This document shows, in pieces, positions 58,144 through 64,000 of a stretch of DNA of 64,000 nucleotides. Position numbers and translations under genes: made by a program. The notes beneath the pieces were generated by a model that saw nothing but the letters and a program-made list of their open reading frames with translations, was not told where the DNA came from and made no database searches. The DNA is taken from the NCBI GenBank assembly GCA_041665785.1, contig JBAYIE010000006.1, positions 38,021 through 102,020 of the forward strand, read 5' to 3'. This stretch comes from Bacteroidia bacterium. GTDB lineage: Bacteria; Bacteroidota; Bacteroidia; UKL13-3. Positions within the stretch are counted from its first letter, which is position 1. The number at the start of each line of letters is the position of its first letter.

Positions 58144-59153
58144 GCTTCTTTGCTCAGCTGTTTGCGCTCTTGTATGAACGTGTAAATTAAGGAAAAAGTT
58201 CCGACTGCCAGAATCATGAGCATTTGCATGCCGTGTGAAACAAAACCAAAAACCCCGCCCCCCAGCGAACTTACTCCGTATAAGGCCAGTCCTTTAGCTA
58301 CAAAAATATGGTAAGCTCCGATACCGCCTGAAACCGGGGCTGCAAAACCAAATGTACCCACTACCAATATGCTCATTGCAGCCGAAATTCCAATGTGCGA
58401 CGTTTCATCGATGGCCATCAGGTAGCAATAGGTATTCAGAAAATACAATCCCCAAATCAATGCGGTTTGCAAAAAAAACATTCCCGGAGATTTCAATTTA
58501 AACACCGAAGCAAACCCATTTCCAAATCCCCGAATCAGGTTAACTATTTTTGCAATGAGGGTCATTTGCAACAGATGCACTCTACTCCGGTAAACCAAAT
58601 AACCAACCAACAGTAAAATCAGTAAAGCTATAACTCCATATGCAGCCGGGAATCCGGCAATTTTCTCTTCCAGGGGAGTAAAAAATGTTTCCGAAAAAAA
58701 ACTATACAAAGTGTCAAATTCGATCACCAATACACCGGCAGTCAATGCAAGCAAAATCAACATATCAAAGACCCGCTCCACCACAACGGTACCCAGCGAT
58801 TCATGCATGGGAATGCGATCGGTACGGTTTAAAATACCACAACGGCTCACCTCACCCATCCGGGGAATGGCAAAATTGAAGAGGTATCCGATCATCACGG
58901 CATTGAAAGCGTTCATGCCTGATGGTTTTTTGCCGAGTGGCTCCAGCATCAGGTTCCAGCGCAGGGCGCGCACCAGATGACTCGACAGGGAAACTGTAAC
59001 GGCCATGAAGATCCAGAAATAATTGGCATTGCGGAATCCGTCGAGCAGGGCTTCGTAATTAAGGTTGAGGTTTACGAATGCCAATACCAGCAGGCCCACA
59101 CCGAGGCCAAAAAAGAGGAGGAACTTAGCTATGGATTTAAGTTTTCCGGTCAA
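58140..59153 (-). CDS. Lysylphosphatidylglycerol-synthase-like transmembrane domain (UPF0104, flippase-like) protein.
   Basis: [29 protein letters not shown]...[26 protein letters not shown] is typical of UPF0104. Confidence 0.7.
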
Positions 59154-59500
59154 ACCGAAAGGCGGTTATTGTTATCGGGATATACAGCAACAGGCTTATA
59201 TTGTTTGGCTTCTTCGAAATCCATGGTGGCGTATGAAATGATAATGAGGTGATCTCCCACAAAGCCTTTACGGGCGGCAGGACCATTGAGGCAGATAATG
59301 CCTGAATTGCGCTCTCCCTTGATGATATAGGTTTCGAGGCGTTCGCCGTTGTTTACGTTCACTACCTGTACCTTCTCGTTTTCGATCATATTGGCTGCCT
59401 CCATCAATGCTTCATCGATGGTAATGCTACCCACGTAGTGCAACTCCGTTTCGGTAAGTTTGGCGCGGTGTATCTTGGATTTGAGTACTTCTATTTGCAT
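59150..59500 (-). CDS. panD: Aspartate 1-decarboxylase.
   Basis: [29 protein letters not shown] with the pyruvoyl-forming G-S cleavage site. Start chosen at MQIEV. The ORF track extends 29 codons further upstream. Confidence 0.85.
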
Positions 59501-59607
59501 AAAATCGGTGCAAATGTAGGAGTAATATTTGATATTGCCTCGAAGCGAAACTATGAGTACCTTCGTCCCCTTGTATAAACTCACCATCTACGAGGTTATA
59601 CAAACTA

Positions 59608-59694
59608 CGGAGAGTTGTCAGAGTGGCCGAACGAGCGCGCTTGGAAAGCGCGTATACTGTAACAGGTATCGAGGGTTCGAATCCCTCACTCTCC
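59608..59694 (+). tRNA. tRNA-Ser (anticodon GGA), type II with a long variable arm.
   Basis: ggagagt acceptor stem pairs with actctcc. Anticodon stem gcgcgc / gcgcgt with loop ttGGAaa. TTCGAAT T-loop. Near-identical in architecture to E. coli tRNA-Ser(GGA). Confidence 0.85.
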
Positions 59695-59701
59695 GCAAAC
59701 C

Positions 59702-59730
59702 CAAAATCCCGCTTTTGCGGGATTTTGTAC
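59702..59730 (+). terminator. Hairpin immediately after tRNA-Ser.
   Basis: aaaatcccgcttttgcgggatttt: a 10-bp stem with a 4-nt loop. Confidence 0.55.
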
Positions 59731-59736
59731 GTTAAC

Positions 59737-60003
59737 GAGCACTGCGTCAAAAGCCCCAAAGCTTTTGTAAGCAGGGCGAAGTGAACGTACAACAAATTCC
59801 CGCCTAGGGAATTTGGGTTTGTTTCTCCCCCCAACGGGATCGCGCGCCAGCGCAATCTTTCCTGATTAGTTAGTTTCCGATAGCACTGCGTCAAAAGCCC
59901 CAAAGCTTTTGTAAGCAGGGCGAAGTGAACGTACAACAAATTCCCGTCTAGGGAATTTGGGTTTGTTTCTCCACCCAATGGGATCGCGCGTTAGCGCAAT
60001 CTT
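59737..60003. repeat. Two tandem direct copies of a ~122-bp element (59737..59859 and 59882..60003) downstream of tRNA-Ser.
   Basis: agcactgcgtcaaaagccccaaagcttttgtaagcagggcgaagtgaacgtacaacaaattcccg(c/t)ctagggaatttgggtttgtttctcc(c/a)ccca(ac/at)gggatcgcgcg(cc/tt)agcgcaatctt. Copies differ at about 6 positions. Each contains aattcccgNctagggaatt and aaagc..gcttt hairpins. Confidence 0.8.
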
Positions 60004-60102
60004 AAAGTATTATTTATATGTAAAATGCAATTCTTTTGAAGGATTCCCAAAAATATGCACCACCCATATTTCAATTTAAATTTGAATAAATCCAATATAG
60101 TT

Positions 60103-60501
60103 TCACTTTACCCGGAATCCTAATTCATAACAACTATTATCAGTGGGATTATAATTAAAAGTGCAACCTGAATTCTCCCGATTATTCTTTTTTAGTTTTG
60201 ACTCATCATTATATTTATTTACAGTGTCATAACACTTTCGATTTGAATAAACCATAAAGTAATAAAAAGTAAAGAAGCCGAGATAAGCCAGAGCCAAAAA
60301 AAAAATTATATAATCTCTTTCTACCTGATTGATCGTTTTTATTGAGATCAAAGTCATACCTATTGTTATACTCCAAAGAATAGTAATTATTGTCATAAGA
60401 TTTAGTGCTCCCCAGTGATGCCTATCGTTTTTTAGAAATCGAAAGAAGTCATAACATCTATAATAAAATATATTTAACAATGTCTTCATTTTACCCTTCA
60501 A
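60103..60501 (-). CDS. Small membrane protein (2 transmembrane helices), translationally coupled to the upstream Fic gene.
   Basis: 132 aa with hydrophobic segments LMTIITILWSITIGMTLISI and IIFFLALAYLGFFTFYYFMVY. Overlaps the Fic gene by 4 bp. AT-rich. Confidence 0.5.
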   Translation of the reverse strand: MKGKMKTLLNIFYYRCYDFFRFLKNDRHHWGALNLMTIITILWSITIGMTLISIKTINQVERDYIIFFLALAYLGFFTFYYFMVYSNRKCYDTVNKYNDESKLKKNNRENSGCTFNYNPTDNSCYELGFRVK

Positions 60502-61580
60502 CCAGCTTTTAACAGATTAAACAAATCAATATTGATATACAACATATCTCTACCCACCTTTTCACCTTTCAAAACACCGATCTTCTCAAGGTCTTTCAGG
60601 TATTTGCTTGCCGTAAAGCGTGTGATGCCGAGTTGATCTTCCAATGCCGATATCCTCGCGTAGGGTTGATGAAACAGCACTTCTACCAGTTCTTTGGAAT
60701 AAATCTTTGGCCGCTTCAACTTTACTTTCTCAATTGTTTTTTCTAACAATAACTTAATTCCCCGGATAGTTTTGATCGTATCCGTTGCAGAATATGCTAC
60801 CGATTCCAGCATATATACAATCCATTCTTCCCAATTTCTATTTTGACGAACATTATTCAACCCTTTATAATATTGCTTCTTCTGTTTAATTATAAATGAA
60901 CTTAGGTATAAAATAGGCAACTCAAGCAATCCTTCATGAATGAGATAAAGAACATTTAAAATACGCCCGGTTCTGCCATTTCCATCATAAAATGGATGTA
61001 TAGATTCAAACTGATAATGCATTATTCCCATCCTAATCAATGGATCCATATCCTCGTTCGTTCCATTTATATATTCTTCCAGATTCTTCAGTTTATCCTG
61101 AATAATATCTTTCCCAAACGGGGGGGTATAAATTACTTTACCAGTTCGGACTTGCTTTAAAGCAGTTCCGGGCTGATTTCTTATCCCGGCATTATTCCCC
61201 ATCAGGCATTCCTGAATCTTCATCAACTCTCGGGTCGTTATAAGTTTTTTCTTTTTGATCAACTCATATCCCAGCCACATCGCTTGCTTATAATTCAGAA
61301 CCTCTTTAACAGCAGCATTCAAATCCGTATTACCAACCGAATATGCCTTATAAAGCTCATCCTGTGTGGTTACAATATTTTCAATCGCTGAACTATCTCT
61401 GGCTTCACGCAGTACCAGACTGTCTAAAATGATTACCGGGTTTGGGATCAGACCGGTCATTCCTTTGAGTTCGGCCAAGGCTTTATTCGCTTGAATCGCT
61501 TTATTATAAACCTTGGGTGTCAATGTTAACTTTGGCGGTAATAACGGAAGTTTATTATATGGTTTATCTGGGCTGTACAT
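60498..61580 (-). CDS. Fic/DOC family protein (class II, N-terminal inhibitory motif, C-terminal winged-helix).
   Basis: Fic motif HPFYDGNGRTGR. Inhibitory S-SAI-E-N motif near the N-terminus. C-terminal HTH-like region (ISALEDQLGITRFTASKYLKDLEKIGVL). AT-rich. Confidence 0.85.
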   Translation of the reverse strand: MYSPDKPYNKLPLLPPKLTLTPKVYNKAIQANKALAELKGMTGLIPNPVIILDSLVLREARDSSAIENIVTTQDELYKAYSVGNTDLNAAVKEVLNYKQAMWLGYELIKKKKLITTRELMKIQECLMGNNAGIRNQPGTALKQVRTGKVIYTPPFGKDIIQDKLKNLEEYINGTNEDMDPLIRMGIMHYQFESIHPFYDGNGRTGRILNVLYLIHEGLLELPILYLSSFIIKQKKQYYKGLNNVRQNRNWEEWIVYMLESVAYSATDTIKTIRGIKLLLEKTIEKVKLKRPKIYSKELVEVLFHQPYARISALEDQLGITRFTASKYLKDLEKIGVLKGEKVGRDMLYINIDLFNLLKAG

Positions 61581-61589
61581 TATCTGGCC

Positions 61590-61745
61590 ATTTTTGATAT
61601 GTTAATTTTTTCACGTTTTTTCAACATATCTCAAAAATACGTGAATTGCTTTAACATATCCAAACAATATGTTTAAAGTATTGGGTTATTTCAACATATT
61701 GCAAAAATGGGTGCGTTCCTTTAACATATCCCCTCCCCAAAAAAC
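61590..61745. promoter_or_regulatory. Upstream region of the Fic gene with six reiterated TT(C/T)AACATAT(C/T) motifs in both orientations, arranged as two ~45-bp direct repeats.
   Basis: atatgttaa, ttcaacatatctc, tttaacatatcc, caatatgtttaa, ttcaacatattgc, tttaacatatccc. Units ttcaacatatctcaaaaatacgtgaattgctttaacatatcc and ttcaacatattgcaaaaatgggtgcgttcctttaacatatcc. Confidence 0.5.
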
Positions 61746-61798
61746 CCTTCAATGATTTTGTGCCCTGATTCCTCACACACTCACCCACTCACTCATAC

Positions 61799-63985
61799 TC
61801 ATTCTCCTTTCCTCTTCCCAAAATACTCCTTCGCCTTTTCCTTATAGTAAGGCTGCATTTCGGCCGGAATGGTTTGCAGCAATTCCTGCTCTTTTTGTTT
61901 TTGTTTCTGGTACTGCTCAAAAGAAGGGGGCGCTGCGCGCGGCTTTTCTTTCGCCTGTTCCGATTCGCGTTTCTTGTCTTCTTCCTGCTTGCGCTCGGCT
62001 TTCTCGCTTTCCAGCAGGCGTGTCATGATTTCTTCCTGGCGCTGCAACATTTGACGCGTGAGGTTTTTGTTGAAGAGTTCCTTTTCGGTTTGTTCCATCA
62101 AACGTTGCAATTCCTGCAGTTTGGCATTGCCTCCAAGCTGCTCCTTTTCTTTTGCCCCTAACTCGTTCAACATTTTTTGCATTTGCTGTCGGATGGCCAT
62201 TTGCTGAGCTGCCATGCGTGCATATTCCTGACTGCCCATTCCGGGTTTTTCGCCCGGCTTGTTGCCCTTACCTTCCTGTTTGTTCAACCCTTCGCGCAAT
62301 TGTTTGTTCAGCTCTTCCTGCATTTTCTTCATGGTCGACATGCTCTTGCTTTTTCCTTTACCCTTGCCTTTTCCTTGTCCCTTCTTTTGTTGCTTACCTT
62401 TTTCGCCGCTGCTCTTGGCTTGCATTTGCTCCTGCAATTGCTTGAGCACTTCACTCAACAGCACCCCGAGGTTGTTGGCATTCATCATGGCTTGTTGCTG
62501 ATTCAACCGGATCTGACCAATATTACGCGAACCATAACCCTCGATGCTTTTATCCAGGTTGGCATTCAGTTTCGATACTTCACGGTTGATGAAGGTACTT
62601 ATTTCAGGAATGCGCTTGCTTAAGGCCACCAGCGAATCTTCAATGATGCGGGCATTGTCTTTGATGTTTTTCTGCCTGCGTGCCATATCCACGTATTGCG
62701 GATTGTAATTGTTGACCCGTTTAAATTCTTCCATCAATTGCTCCTGATCCGTACTCAGCTGTATCGTATTCTCTAAAATTTCCCGCAAGGCTTCAGCATT
62801 GATTTCATCTTCCTTTTGCTCTTCGGCATCCAGTTCCTTCTTCAACTTATCGTTCAGCTCCTTCATTTTTTTAGCCGCCTTCTTCTGACTTTCAGCCGCG
62901 TTTTTTGGATCTTCTTTTTCCAGCTGCTCTTCACTTTGTTTTTGATCCTGCTCTATTTCCTGTTGCTCCTTTTCAGTGTTCCCCAATTCCTTGGGCTCTT
63001 CCAGTTCTTTGTTTTTTTCCTGTATATCTTTCAGCTCTTCTTTCAGGTCTTTAAATTCCCCGGAAAGCTTTTCTTGCTCCAATTGGATCTCTCGAAGGCC
63101 TTTCTTTCCCTCTTCTTTCTCGGCGCCGGCAGGCTTATCTTTACCGGAACATTTTTTCGCTAAATCTTCCTGCTTTTGGGTAAGCTCATCGAGTTGGCGT
63201 ATGGCTTCTTCGCGCTTCTTTTCCAGTTCCAGTTGTTTAAACTGCTCTAGCATGCGATCCAGTTCTTTCTCTACATCTTTATTGTTCATCTGCAGCTTTT
63301 CCATCTCATCTTTCACCGCGTCTTTGTTTTGTCGCTGCATCATTTCTTCCAGTTGCTGCATGAGTTTTTTCATCTCATCGCTCATCACCTCATTAAACAA
63401 CTTGTTGATTTGCTCCTGCTTTTCCATCAAAGCATCCTGCTGCTTCCTGAATTCCTGTTCCTGCCGTGTTAATTCCTTTTGCTTGTTTTTGATTTGTTCG
63501 ATATCGCGGTTCAGTTCCTGTTGGCGTTGCAGAATTTTCTCCAGCTTCTTTTTCTCTTCCCAGGTAAATTCACGGTTCTCGTGCATTTTGTTTTCGATGG
63601 CTTTCAATTCCTTCTGCAGATTTCGTGCTTCACGGATCGCTTCTTCCATTTGTTGCTTCAATGATTCGCTTCCACTTTCGTGATTTTTTTCGAGTTCATT
63701 TACCGATGGTGCTTTATATACCATCACCTTTGAACGTGTAGATTTAGCTCCAAAAACCCCATCGTTATCCCACACTTCAAAATAATATTCTACCTGATCC
63801 GACGGACTGATCCCTATTTCGCTGAGGTTAATCTGATAACTGAAACGCGCCGTACGCGAAACGGCATCCATCGAAACCGGCAAACGGTGCAAACCGGATT
63901 TTATTTTTTCTTCCTGTTCCGATGTGGTGTATCTGTAATTAAAGGTCAATCGCGTTAAACCATGATCGTCTTCTGCATCTCCCAT
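61799..63985 (-). CDS. Long coiled-coil protein, K/E/Q-rich; N-terminus probably beyond the window edge.
   Basis: More than 700 aa of heptad-like EK-rich sequence (LQKELKAIENKMHEN..., EKEQLGGNAKLQELQRLMEQ...) with a GKGKGKGKSKS stretch. The ORF runs to the window end. Confidence 0.55.
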   Translation of the reverse strand: MGDAEDDHGLTRLTFNYRYTTSEQEEKIKSGLHRLPVSMDAVSRTARFSYQINLSEIGISPSDQVEYYFEVWDNDGVFGAKSTRSKVMVYKAPSVNELEKNHESGSESLKQQMEEAIREARNLQKELKAIENKMHENREFTWEEKKKLEKILQRQQELNRDIEQIKNKQKELTRQEQEFRKQQDALMEKQEQINKLFNEVMSDEMKKLMQQLEEMMQRQNKDAVKDEMEKLQMNNKDVEKELDRMLEQFKQLELEKKREEAIRQLDELTQKQEDLAKKCSGKDKPAGAEKEEGKKGLREIQLEQEKLSGEFKDLKEELKDIQEKNKELEEPKELGNTEKEQQEIEQDQKQSEEQLEKEDPKNAAESQKKAAKKMKELNDKLKKELDAEEQKEDEINAEALREILENTIQLSTDQEQLMEEFKRVNNYNPQYVDMARRQKNIKDNARIIEDSLVALSKRIPEISTFINREVSKLNANLDKSIEGYGSRNIGQIRLNQQQAMMNANNLGVLLSEVLKQLQEQMQAKSSGEKGKQQKKGQGKGKGKGKSKSMSTMKKMQEELNKQLREGLNKQEGKGNKPGEKPGMGSQEYARMAAQQMAIRQQMQKMLNELGAKEKEQLGGNAKLQELQRLMEQTEKELFNKNLTRQMLQRQEEIMTRLLESEKAERKQEEDKKRESEQAKEKPRAAPPSFEQYQKQKQKEQELLQTIPAEMQPYYKEKAKEYFGKRKGE

Positions 63986-64000
63986 AAAATACCGCTGAGC

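Follow-up and report, generated by a model that had tools for sequence, protein, structure and literature searches.

A SoFic-type Fic gene with a predicted 70-bp-periodic operator array, beside hairpin-rich tRNA-Ser(GGA) repeats in a Bacteroidia genome

SoFic proteins are class II Fic enzymes recently recognised as a single-gene phage defence. The Escherichia coli member, EcSofic, combines toxicity with protection against phage T5; its toxicity is neutralised by AS1, a small open reading frame (ORF) abutting the EcSofic stop codon, no soluble form of which could be obtained (PMC12249575). Shewanella oneidensis SoFic (SO_4266) AMPylates EF-Tu, also deAMPylates it constitutively, and its dimer shows specific binding to the AT-rich stretch of 100 bp that precedes its own gene; a dual regulatory role was proposed by the authors (bioRxiv 10.64898/2026.07.09.737422). 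CccR of Yersinia pseudotuberculosis, a class II Fic protein bearing a domain of the helix-turn-helix (HTH) type, represses its own promoter via 10-bp inverted repeats (PMC9755527), and the activity of CbFic2 switches upon DNA binding (PMC10628234). Here we analyze a SoFic-type gene in a 64,000-nucleotide stretch of a Bacteroidia bacterium (the window: GenBank GCA_041665785.1, contig JBAYIE010000006.1, positions 38,021 to 102,020), which also forms part of a 110.6-kb metagenome contig (ENA ERZ27249449 k141_605960). The gene lies between tRNA-Ser(GGA), with its hairpin-rich repeats, and a gene for a coiled-coil-like protein, and a small gene for a protein with two predicted transmembrane (TM) segments follows it. 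With a probability of about 0.72, we read the locus as a mosaic of an autoregulated SoFic cassette, a co-transcribed passenger membrane gene, and repeats belonging to the tRNA flank. Coordinates are collected in Table 1.

By its sequence, the Fic protein is a full-length SoFic family member. Three domains exceed the Pfam cut-offs (Fic_N, PF13784, 7e-27; Fic, PF02661, 1e-16; SoFic-like_C, PF21248, 1.4e-28), and the PADLOC SoFic profile PDLC03963 matches at 6e-115 over positions 9 to 359 of 361. EcSofic (PDB 9VJC; "SoFic" in PADLOC/DefenseFinder) has the same three-domain architecture and aligns over the full length (5.9e-88), and the S. oneidensis SoFic structures (3EQX, 9TCH, and others) align end to end (∼1e-82). 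The catalytic motif HxFx(D/E)GNGRxxR is present as HPFYDGNGRTGR, and the inhibitory motif (S/T)xxxE(G/N) as SSAIEN, N-terminal and in cis; both align with their counterparts in 9VJC and 9TCH. A reading made from the letters alone (the sequence-only reading) had described a class II Fic protein with an inhibitory motif and a C-terminal winged HTH (wHTH), which these matches bear out; its suggestion of a small defence or toxin islet also holds, in that the gene belongs to the anti-phage, toxin-like SoFic family (PADLOC, PDB; PMC12249575). A class I Fic toxin-antitoxin pair (FicT/FicA or VbhT/VbhA type) was rejected: the inhibitory helix of this protein lies in cis and not on a separate small protein, and the small protein encoded downstream carries no (S/T)xxxE(G/N). 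SoFic homologues number roughly 8,000; a scan of viral contigs returned no Fic homologue. By homology to EcSofic and S. oneidensis SoFic, the protein would be a toxic, dimeric AMP-transferase: it would AMPylate EF-Tu and halt translation, with the glutamate of its own N-terminal inhibitory motif as the restraint; phage infection would relieve the inhibition, making the gene an abortive-infection defence.

We then looked into the region upstream of the Fic gene, where an iterated-motif promoter had been claimed from the letters. The core AACATAT indeed occurs six times in the 146 bp from 61590 to 61735, versus 0.03 copies expected from its density in the rest of the window. Read on the gene strand, the layout is ATATGTTAAA-N20-(ATATGTTGAA-N13-TTAAACATAT)-N7-ATATGTTAAA-N20-(ATATGTTGAA-N13-ATTAACATAT), with the distal and proximal palindromes, 70 bp apart, in parentheses; six 10-bp half-sites thus form two 70-bp modules, ending 16 nt before the Fic ATG. 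A degenerate half-site in inverted orientation comes 3 nt after the inner single half-site (61650-61659). The closest homologues of the Fic protein (74 to 80% identity; loci L042, L043/L044, L045, and L066) lie in unrelated genomic contexts and are preceded by the identical half-site in the same alternating layout, pairs facing each other across N13 taking turns with pairs across N3, with 5 to 10 sites in the last 110 to 190 bp. The proximal palindrome has an equal arrangement in L042, L043, L045, and L066.

The 70-bp spacing is the top self-similarity signal of the window (0.46, >99th percentile of shuffles), and the same lag is the strongest in L043 (0.60), in L045 (0.44), and upstream of EcSofic (0.61 in L061), where Tandem Repeats Finder (TRF) reports a period of 70 bp with 5.4 copies and 75% matches. 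In E. coli HUSEC2011 (L061 2512-3000), the EcSofic gene is preceded by an intergenic region of ∼490 bp built of 70-bp units, which carry ATGTCGAT / ATCGACAC inverted sites and TTTAAACATGT. This array is unannotated and occurs in 233 of 5,426 complete E. coli genomes. The two loci are thus alike in having a solitary, portable gene behind an array of inverted half-sites with a 70-bp period. They differ in the half-site itself (ATGTCGAT there, ATATGTTGAA here), in the extent of the array (5.4 copies in the repeat-bearing region of ∼490 bp there, two modules here), and in the host, which here is a Bacteroidota member with a -7-type promoter.

More distant homologues are preceded by other iterated inverted half-sites, ATGTACA (L047) or ATGTCGA(T) (L050, L052, and E. 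coli). Across the loci where both could be read, the type of half-site tracks the residue before the conserved TAS.YLK in the recognition helix of the wHTH, which is F, R, or Q: RF goes with ATGTTGA, RR with ATGTACA, and RQ with ATGTCGA. The conserved 70-bp-periodic architecture and its co-variation with the recognition helix go beyond the literature that we found; in the published SoFic, CccR, and CbFic2 work cited here, we found no definition of this operator. Together, the locus and its relatives provide a concrete operator model for the family, in which N13 palindromes of 10-bp half-sites are arranged in 70-bp modules on both sides of the promoter, a single position of the recognition helix varies together with the half-site, and the periodicity recurs upstream of the experimentally studied E. 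coli gene.

The promoter candidate of the Fic gene is TATTTTTG, the sole TAnnTTTG box that the gene strand has from 60103 to 61800. It sits between operator sites, immediately upstream of the proximal palindrome, and TATCTTTG holds the equivalent relative position in L042, L043, and L045. We infer that TATTTTTG acts as a Bacteroidota-type -7 promoter box. From the array and the published binding of SoFic and CccR to their own promoters, we further infer autorepression, the SoFic dimer binding the array sites and occluding its own promoter. The C-terminal winged helix would bind the ATATGTTGAA half-sites in the N13-spaced palindromes of the two 70-bp modules, and with sites flanking and overlapping the only -7 box, transcription of the gene would be repressed and the protein kept at a low, safe level. 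For S. oneidensis SoFic, with which the match is full length and which is likewise a class II protein with a wHTH, dimer-dependent upstream binding and EF-Tu AMPylation are published and the operator is undefined in that work (bioRxiv 10.64898/2026.07.09.737422), unlike here, where the site array is predicted from comparative sequence. CccR, an autorepressor and type VI secretion system effector, is also a Fic toxin that represses as a dimer through its own HTH and 10-bp inverted repeats. It is distant (CccR and SoFic share 29% identity at 45% coverage; PMC9755527), is secreted and targets FtsZ, and has a single palindrome with a 26-bp spacer, unlike the several palindromes, 13-bp spacers, and 70-bp modules found here.

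A more speculative use of the same array, which we consider quite unlikely, is that of a DNA dock: the periodic half-sites would store SoFic dimers in an inactive or deAMPylating state, infection-linked loss or remodelling of DNA would release EF-Tu AMPylation, and the two-TM protein would be a lineage-specific modulator. If this were true, DNA occupancy would serve as an infection sensor, with host-DNA degradation by T5-like phages as one possible trigger.

The array and the Fic gene travel together. In blastn comparisons of the window with L042, L045, L043, and L044, homology is limited to one block of ∼1.23 kb (60505-61731, 70 to 75% DNA identity), which corresponds exactly to the operator array plus the Fic ORF. 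The SoFic gene with its promoter is clearly a portable cassette, as these alignments indicate, recurring in unrelated contexts. In the window, it is part of a small AT-rich insert, absent from the nearest relatives (loci L003, L004, L006, L007, and L008), which have neither a Fic gene nor the coiled-coil neighbor. The AT-rich segment of the sequence-only reading is real, with 34.4% GC over 60017-61735 versus 42.7% for the window; it is not uniform, the Fic ORF having 37.8%, the small ORF 28.7%, and the operator region 29.7%. In the loci of the homologues, the GC content of the Fic gene is within a few points of that of the flanks, mostly slightly lower.

Horizontal acquisition at a tRNA-flanking hot spot is plausible, given that the islet is missing in relatives, that the cassette is portable, and that other SoFic loci adjoin tRNA genes. 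In L045 (1600-7048) and in the contig of P0009, a SoFic homologue with 80% identity follows tRNA-Arg(TCT); behind it come genes for a DUF6973 protein, for a protein of 158 aa, and for two tyrosine recombinases. The arrangement resembles an integrative element that carries SoFic as cargo, and no att repeat was found within the 7.9-kb contig. In L051 (tRNA at 2025-2114) and L055 (tRNA at 1582-1671), SoFic homologues with 45 to 46% identity lie ∼170 to 300 bp downstream of tRNA-Ser(CGA). No empty site was found in the species itself: an exact look-up of PanD, encoded upstream of the tRNA, gave two samples, in which the islet was present or contigs were broken at the repeats. In the second sample (SRR6484324), the assembly is broken at the tRNA and repeats, L002 ending inside a repeat unit and L065 starting 96 nt upstream of panD; such a break would fit a real repeat and perhaps also heterogeneity in copy number.

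The small membrane-protein gene falls outside the conserved cassette. Called mechanically, the ORF (60103-60501, minus strand) starts at a TTG, encodes 132 aa, and overlaps the Fic TGA by 4 nt, as the sequence-only reading had it. Three distant homologues align from the fifth codon of this ORF, so the likely start is the ATG at 60489, 8 nt after the Fic stop, giving a protein of 128 aa. Automated gene callers report only an 84-aa version. The two hydrophobic segments found in a hydropathy scan are shared by the three homologues, as is an invariant N-terminal YYRC(Y/W)DF (YYRCYDF in the window protein). These homologues (P0003 to P0005), which lie on short contigs, were obtained by exhaustive phmmer search (E = 1e-6 to 3e-4) among 1.84 billion representatives; a word-indexed search returned only the protein itself, and neither a scan of viral contigs nor PHROGs yielded a homologue. 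Judging from these homologues, the small gene is a real one, a rare membrane-protein family without annotation that has four detectable members among the 1.84 billion representatives. No Pfam, PADLOC, NCBIfam, or PHROGs match exceeds its threshold; matches with E values of 6e-4 to 5e-3 (Pfam DUF3169 and TLC, NCBIfam, and PADLOC PDC-M50A), those to Pfam and NCBIfam being below the curated cut-offs, were treated as noise.

With a gap of 8 nt, no terminator-like site between the two genes, and no second -7 box, the membrane gene is probably co-transcribed with the Fic gene and would be read from the SoFic promoter. The same features, or a 4-nt overlap if the TTG start is used, would suit a two-gene module in which the membrane protein is a partner of SoFic, either an AS1-like antitoxin or stabilizer or a membrane effector or sensor, making the pair a new two-component variant. 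Such a module would also fit with a real gene whose distant homologues keep the invariant YYRC.DF, with the weak match to the PADLOC candidate PDC-M50A (E = 0.002), and with the precedent of the 47-aa ORF that abuts the EcSofic stop and neutralises toxicity (PMC12249575). We nevertheless hold it unlikely, on several counts. In all homologue loci with readable downstream sequence, including those of all four 80%-identical homologues and of E. coli, no membrane-type gene follows the Fic stop. The single membrane-protein homologue with a readable upstream neighbor follows a gene that, by eye from its translation, is SIS-domain-like, and not Fic. The membrane protein has no (S/T)xxxE(G/N) motif, and the difference in GC content (28.7% versus 37.8% for Fic) suggests a separate origin.

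Finally, the membrane protein bears no similarity to the AS1 candidate. In L061 (4077-4220, plus strand), the final base of the EcSofic stop is also the first of a 47-aa ORF with a GTG start (MNGPRKQKRG...); the encoded protein is basic and has no hydrophobic segment, and on the opposite strand a called gene of 209 aa spans the ORF. This ORF is probably the published antitoxin AS1. The two loci are alike in having a small ORF that starts at or beside the SoFic stop, and differ in what it encodes, 47 basic aa without a hydrophobic segment in the one case and 128 aa with two such segments in the other; BLASTP gave no alignment between the two proteins, and no AS1 homologue was found as the downstream gene here. 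From these comparisons, the membrane gene looks like a separate passenger, specific to the lineage, and not like a functional partner. The coupling of Fic to a small membrane protein, as first proposed, therefore stands for the tight spacing and the probable co-transcription, and not for a pair, the gene being outside the cassette, absent downstream of Fic elsewhere, and without a Fic link of its own. To take the membrane protein for a conserved SoFic partner was an over-reading, which we correct here.

On the other side of the islet, the two near-identical, hairpin-rich 122-bp repeats described 3' of tRNA-Ser are present, in a somewhat different form. Over 59738-60003, TRF finds 1.8 copies with a 144-bp period and 95% matches; unit 2 matches unit 1 at 95.9% over 122 bp and at 92% over 135 nt. 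With 122 bp alignable within a 144-bp period, a 22-bp linker separates the copies. The repeats begin 41 nt after the tRNA, behind its terminator hairpin (59702-59712 / 59717-59727, then TTTTG). Unit 1 holds three hairpins, A (59748-59767), B (59793-59815; terminator-like, with GGTTTGTTTC behind it), and C, together with an inverted copy of the tRNA trailer (59807-59821), the conserved core CCCAACGGGATCGCGC, and the linker, and nucleotides 59696-59710 of the trailer are complementary to a segment of each unit. A 55-nt unit probe was found twice in the window (0 expected by chance), and the plus-strand RNA of 59690-60020 folds at -128.9 kcal/mol (z = -7.9 versus shuffled sequences).

We then compared the tRNA-Ser locus with that of the five relatives, all metagenome-assembled genomes with 59 to 66% identity in the neighboring LPG-synthase-like protein. 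In all of them, panD and tRNA-Ser(GGA) are conserved next to each other, synteny is lost at the tRNA, DNA homology stops at 59711-59729, and hairpin units directly follow the tRNA terminator; the repeats are thus kept in 5/5 and the islet is missing in 5/5. There is one unit in L006, about two in L004 (9276-9472) and L007 (9249-9471), three in L008 (705-976), and at least two in L003 (1-411). In L004, L006, and L008, the last unit is truncated behind the inverted copy of the trailer, and the L003 unit is longer (∼164 bp), with a low-complexity tail. Units are homologous across lineages (E down to 6e-6) and share the core ...CC(C)AAYGGGATC.CGC..., and each lineage carries an inverted copy of its own trailer (CAAACCCAAAATCCC / GGGAATTTGGGTTTG in the window, CAACCCAATCCCG / CGGGATTGGGTTG in L004-L008, CAGTTAATCCCTG / CAGGGATAACTG in L003). 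Where the window has the Fic islet, L004, L006, L007, and L008 have an AT-rich stretch with a gene for a 66-aa XRE-type HTH protein, convergent with the tRNA (L008 375-575, plus strand, HTH_3 at 1.8e-11; by eye in the other three), so the site just beyond the repeats is variable. The SoFic cassette and the membrane gene were probably inserted there, beyond the tRNA-linked repeats.

The sequence-only reading had taken the tRNA gene, the direct repeats, and the AT-rich cargo as signs of an integrated or decayed mobile element, with the repeats as att-type scars and the AT-rich segment as leftover cargo. The islet does adjoin a tRNA gene, is low in GC, and is missing in relatives, and SoFic occurs elsewhere beside tRNA-Arg with two tyrosine recombinases (L045) and beside tRNA-Ser(CGA) (L051 and L055). 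We consider a decayed element highly unlikely all the same, because both repeat units lie on one side of the cargo, one to three homologous units are found at the tRNA in relatives that lack the cargo, no direct repeat of the tRNA 3' end or trailer of at least 10 nt occurs between 59741 and 63000, and no integrase (Phage_integrase-family gene) was called within 10 kb on either side. An integrase and a distal repeat of the tRNA 3' end are what mark tRNA-integrated genomic islands. Moreover, the units hold an inverted and not a direct copy of the tRNA trailer. As far as these comparisons go, the repeats are a lineage feature of the tRNA-Ser(GGA) 3' flank, variable in copy number, and not att sites, contrary to the over-reading that we correct here. 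What remains of the integrated cargo is an AT-rich insert that nearest relatives lack, with a portable cassette in it; the repeats are not its boundaries.

Other repeat classes fit no better. The units resemble repetitive extragenic palindromic (REP) arrays and bacterial interspersed mosaic elements (BIMEs) in being tandem hairpin mosaics of alternating orientation and variable copy number between convergent genes. Unlike these, which are dispersed in many copies, they occur only beside tRNA-Ser(GGA), and we found no further copy of the 122-bp unit in the ∼64 kb of the window or in the ∼86 kb of loci from the five relatives, on which ground a dispersed REP or miniature inverted-repeat transposable element was rejected. 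Integron attC sites (by eye, R'/R'' boxes and cassette ORFs are both missing) and a Bacteroides Mpi-type inverton (an AACGTAC core in one inverted repeat that is not conserved in relatives, enclosing only 44 nt, by eye) were likewise discarded. A panD leader was discarded as well, since panD has its own -7 box.

The trailer and the first unit have a common fold across lineages, a closing stem with three hairpins, in which 13 of 44 consensus pairs show compensatory change. These changes are suggestive of a conserved fold, in about three independent lineages. Alternatively, a functional structured RNA could be encoded in the units, such as a stable product of the tRNA 3' trailer, or the units could be a site of recombination or DNA structure. 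The very stable fold (z = -7.9), the one architecture kept by three lineages with differing sequences, the compensatory changes, and the strict placement beside tRNA-Ser(GGA) would agree with such a role, as would the lack of an Rfam family (a search of the window and three relatives against Rfam 15 returned only the tRNA, other scores being far below gathering). Only some three independent lineages carry the signal, the tRNA terminator precedes the units, copy number varies from one to three, and inverted duplication with template-switch repair could keep complementarity without function, so that we regard this role as improbable. The units may instead serve as a structured barrier or terminator separating the tRNA from the convergent downstream gene, a suggestion that we make with low confidence. 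These tRNA-linked structured repeats also go beyond the literature that we found, as a small curiosity.

We thus favor the mosaic reading, under which the juxtaposition of cassette, membrane gene, and tRNA-flank repeats looks like a coincidence and the Fic gene like a known SoFic family member with the autoregulatory promoter expected of it. Several points weigh against this. The NCBIfam equivalog NF046030 ("protein adenylyltransferase Fic") scores 421.7 bits, below its curated cut-off of 550, and we therefore file the protein as a family member and not as a strict orthologue. Phage defence has been demonstrated only for the E. coli homologue, and there is no defence island around the locus. 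The tight spacing and very low GC content of the membrane gene would also be expected of a recently recruited partner, and the AS1 precedent downstream of EcSofic leaves room for a lineage-specific one. The closest relatives are only 59 to 66% identical in the neighboring protein, with no true empty site found, and the barrier or terminator role of the repeats is a guess. S. oneidensis SoFic, moreover, may be a housekeeping regulator.

If the gene studied here were of that kind, SoFic would tune EF-Tu by reversible AMPylation and deAMPylation, and its own level as well, without a part in defence. The constitutive deAMPylation of EF-Tu, the binding to the own promoter, and the dual role proposed for the S. 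oneidensis protein (bioRxiv 10.64898/2026.07.09.737422) speak for this, as do the lack of a defence-island context and, in the homologue loci, a gene GC content close to that of the flanks, usually slightly lower. A housekeeping gene would sit poorly with a patchy, context-independent distribution as a portable cassette, with the absence of SoFic in the nearest relatives, and with a homologue in E. coli that is toxic and protects against T5 (PMC12249575). We therefore judge a purely housekeeping role doubtful, and retain the defence-type SoFic cassette as the core of the locus.

Table 1. Features of the SoFic locus and its tRNA-Ser(GGA) flank (window positions)
Feature	Position	Strand	Basis or remark
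panD	59150-59587	-	called ORF, 145 aa
tRNA-Ser(GGA)	59609-59696	+	ARAGORN; Rfam tRNA 47.5 bits; CCA not encoded
tRNA trailer with terminator hairpin	59697-59737	+	inverted repeats, folds
Repeat unit 1 (144 bp)	59738-59881	+	TRF, inverted repeats, fold
Repeat unit 2	59882-60016	+	alignment to unit 1
Small membrane-protein gene	60103-60489	-	128 aa from ATG; open frame reaches TTG 60501
SoFic-type class II Fic AMP-transferase, C-terminal wHTH	60498-61580	-	360 aa; Pfam, PADLOC, PDB matches
Portable SoFic cassette (operator array + promoter + ORF)	60505-61731	-	blastn, 70-75% DNA identity
Proximal operator palindrome (predicted)	61597-61629	-	half-sites 61620-61629 and 61597-61606
Candidate -7 promoter box TATTTTTG	61632-61639	-	consensus TAnnTTTG
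Operator half-site ATATGTTAAA (predicted)	61650-61659	-	motif count, homologue layout
Distal operator palindrome (predicted)	61667-61699	-	half-sites 61690-61699 and 61667-61676
Outermost operator half-site ATATGTTAAA (predicted)	61720-61729	-	upstream cassette edge

Around these features, a few further observations were made. The start of panD is probably Met30 (ATG 59500), from which the Pfam model and most relatives align, and the panD -7 box, TACATTTG, lies 11 nt upstream of this ATG (59511-59518, minus strand). An ORF of 183 aa (59427-59978, minus strand) reads in antisense across both repeats as well as the tRNA, and was judged spurious by eye. A -7-like box, TATTTTTG, also occurs at 60048-60055 (minus strand), just downstream of the membrane gene, and faces the repeats and the tRNA in antisense. 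On the far side, an intergenic gap of 218 bp separates the Fic ORF from the gene for the coiled-coil-like protein (1136 aa), whose 3' end is at 61799. This gene (61799-64000, minus strand) runs past the end of the window and encodes a Lys/Glu/Gln-rich protein with no Pfam match and no homologue in the flanks of the relatives. One neighboring gene encodes a Por_Secre_tail domain of the type IX secretion system, and the space between the operator array and the coiled-coil gene's stop contains a (CTCA)6 microsatellite (61772-61795).

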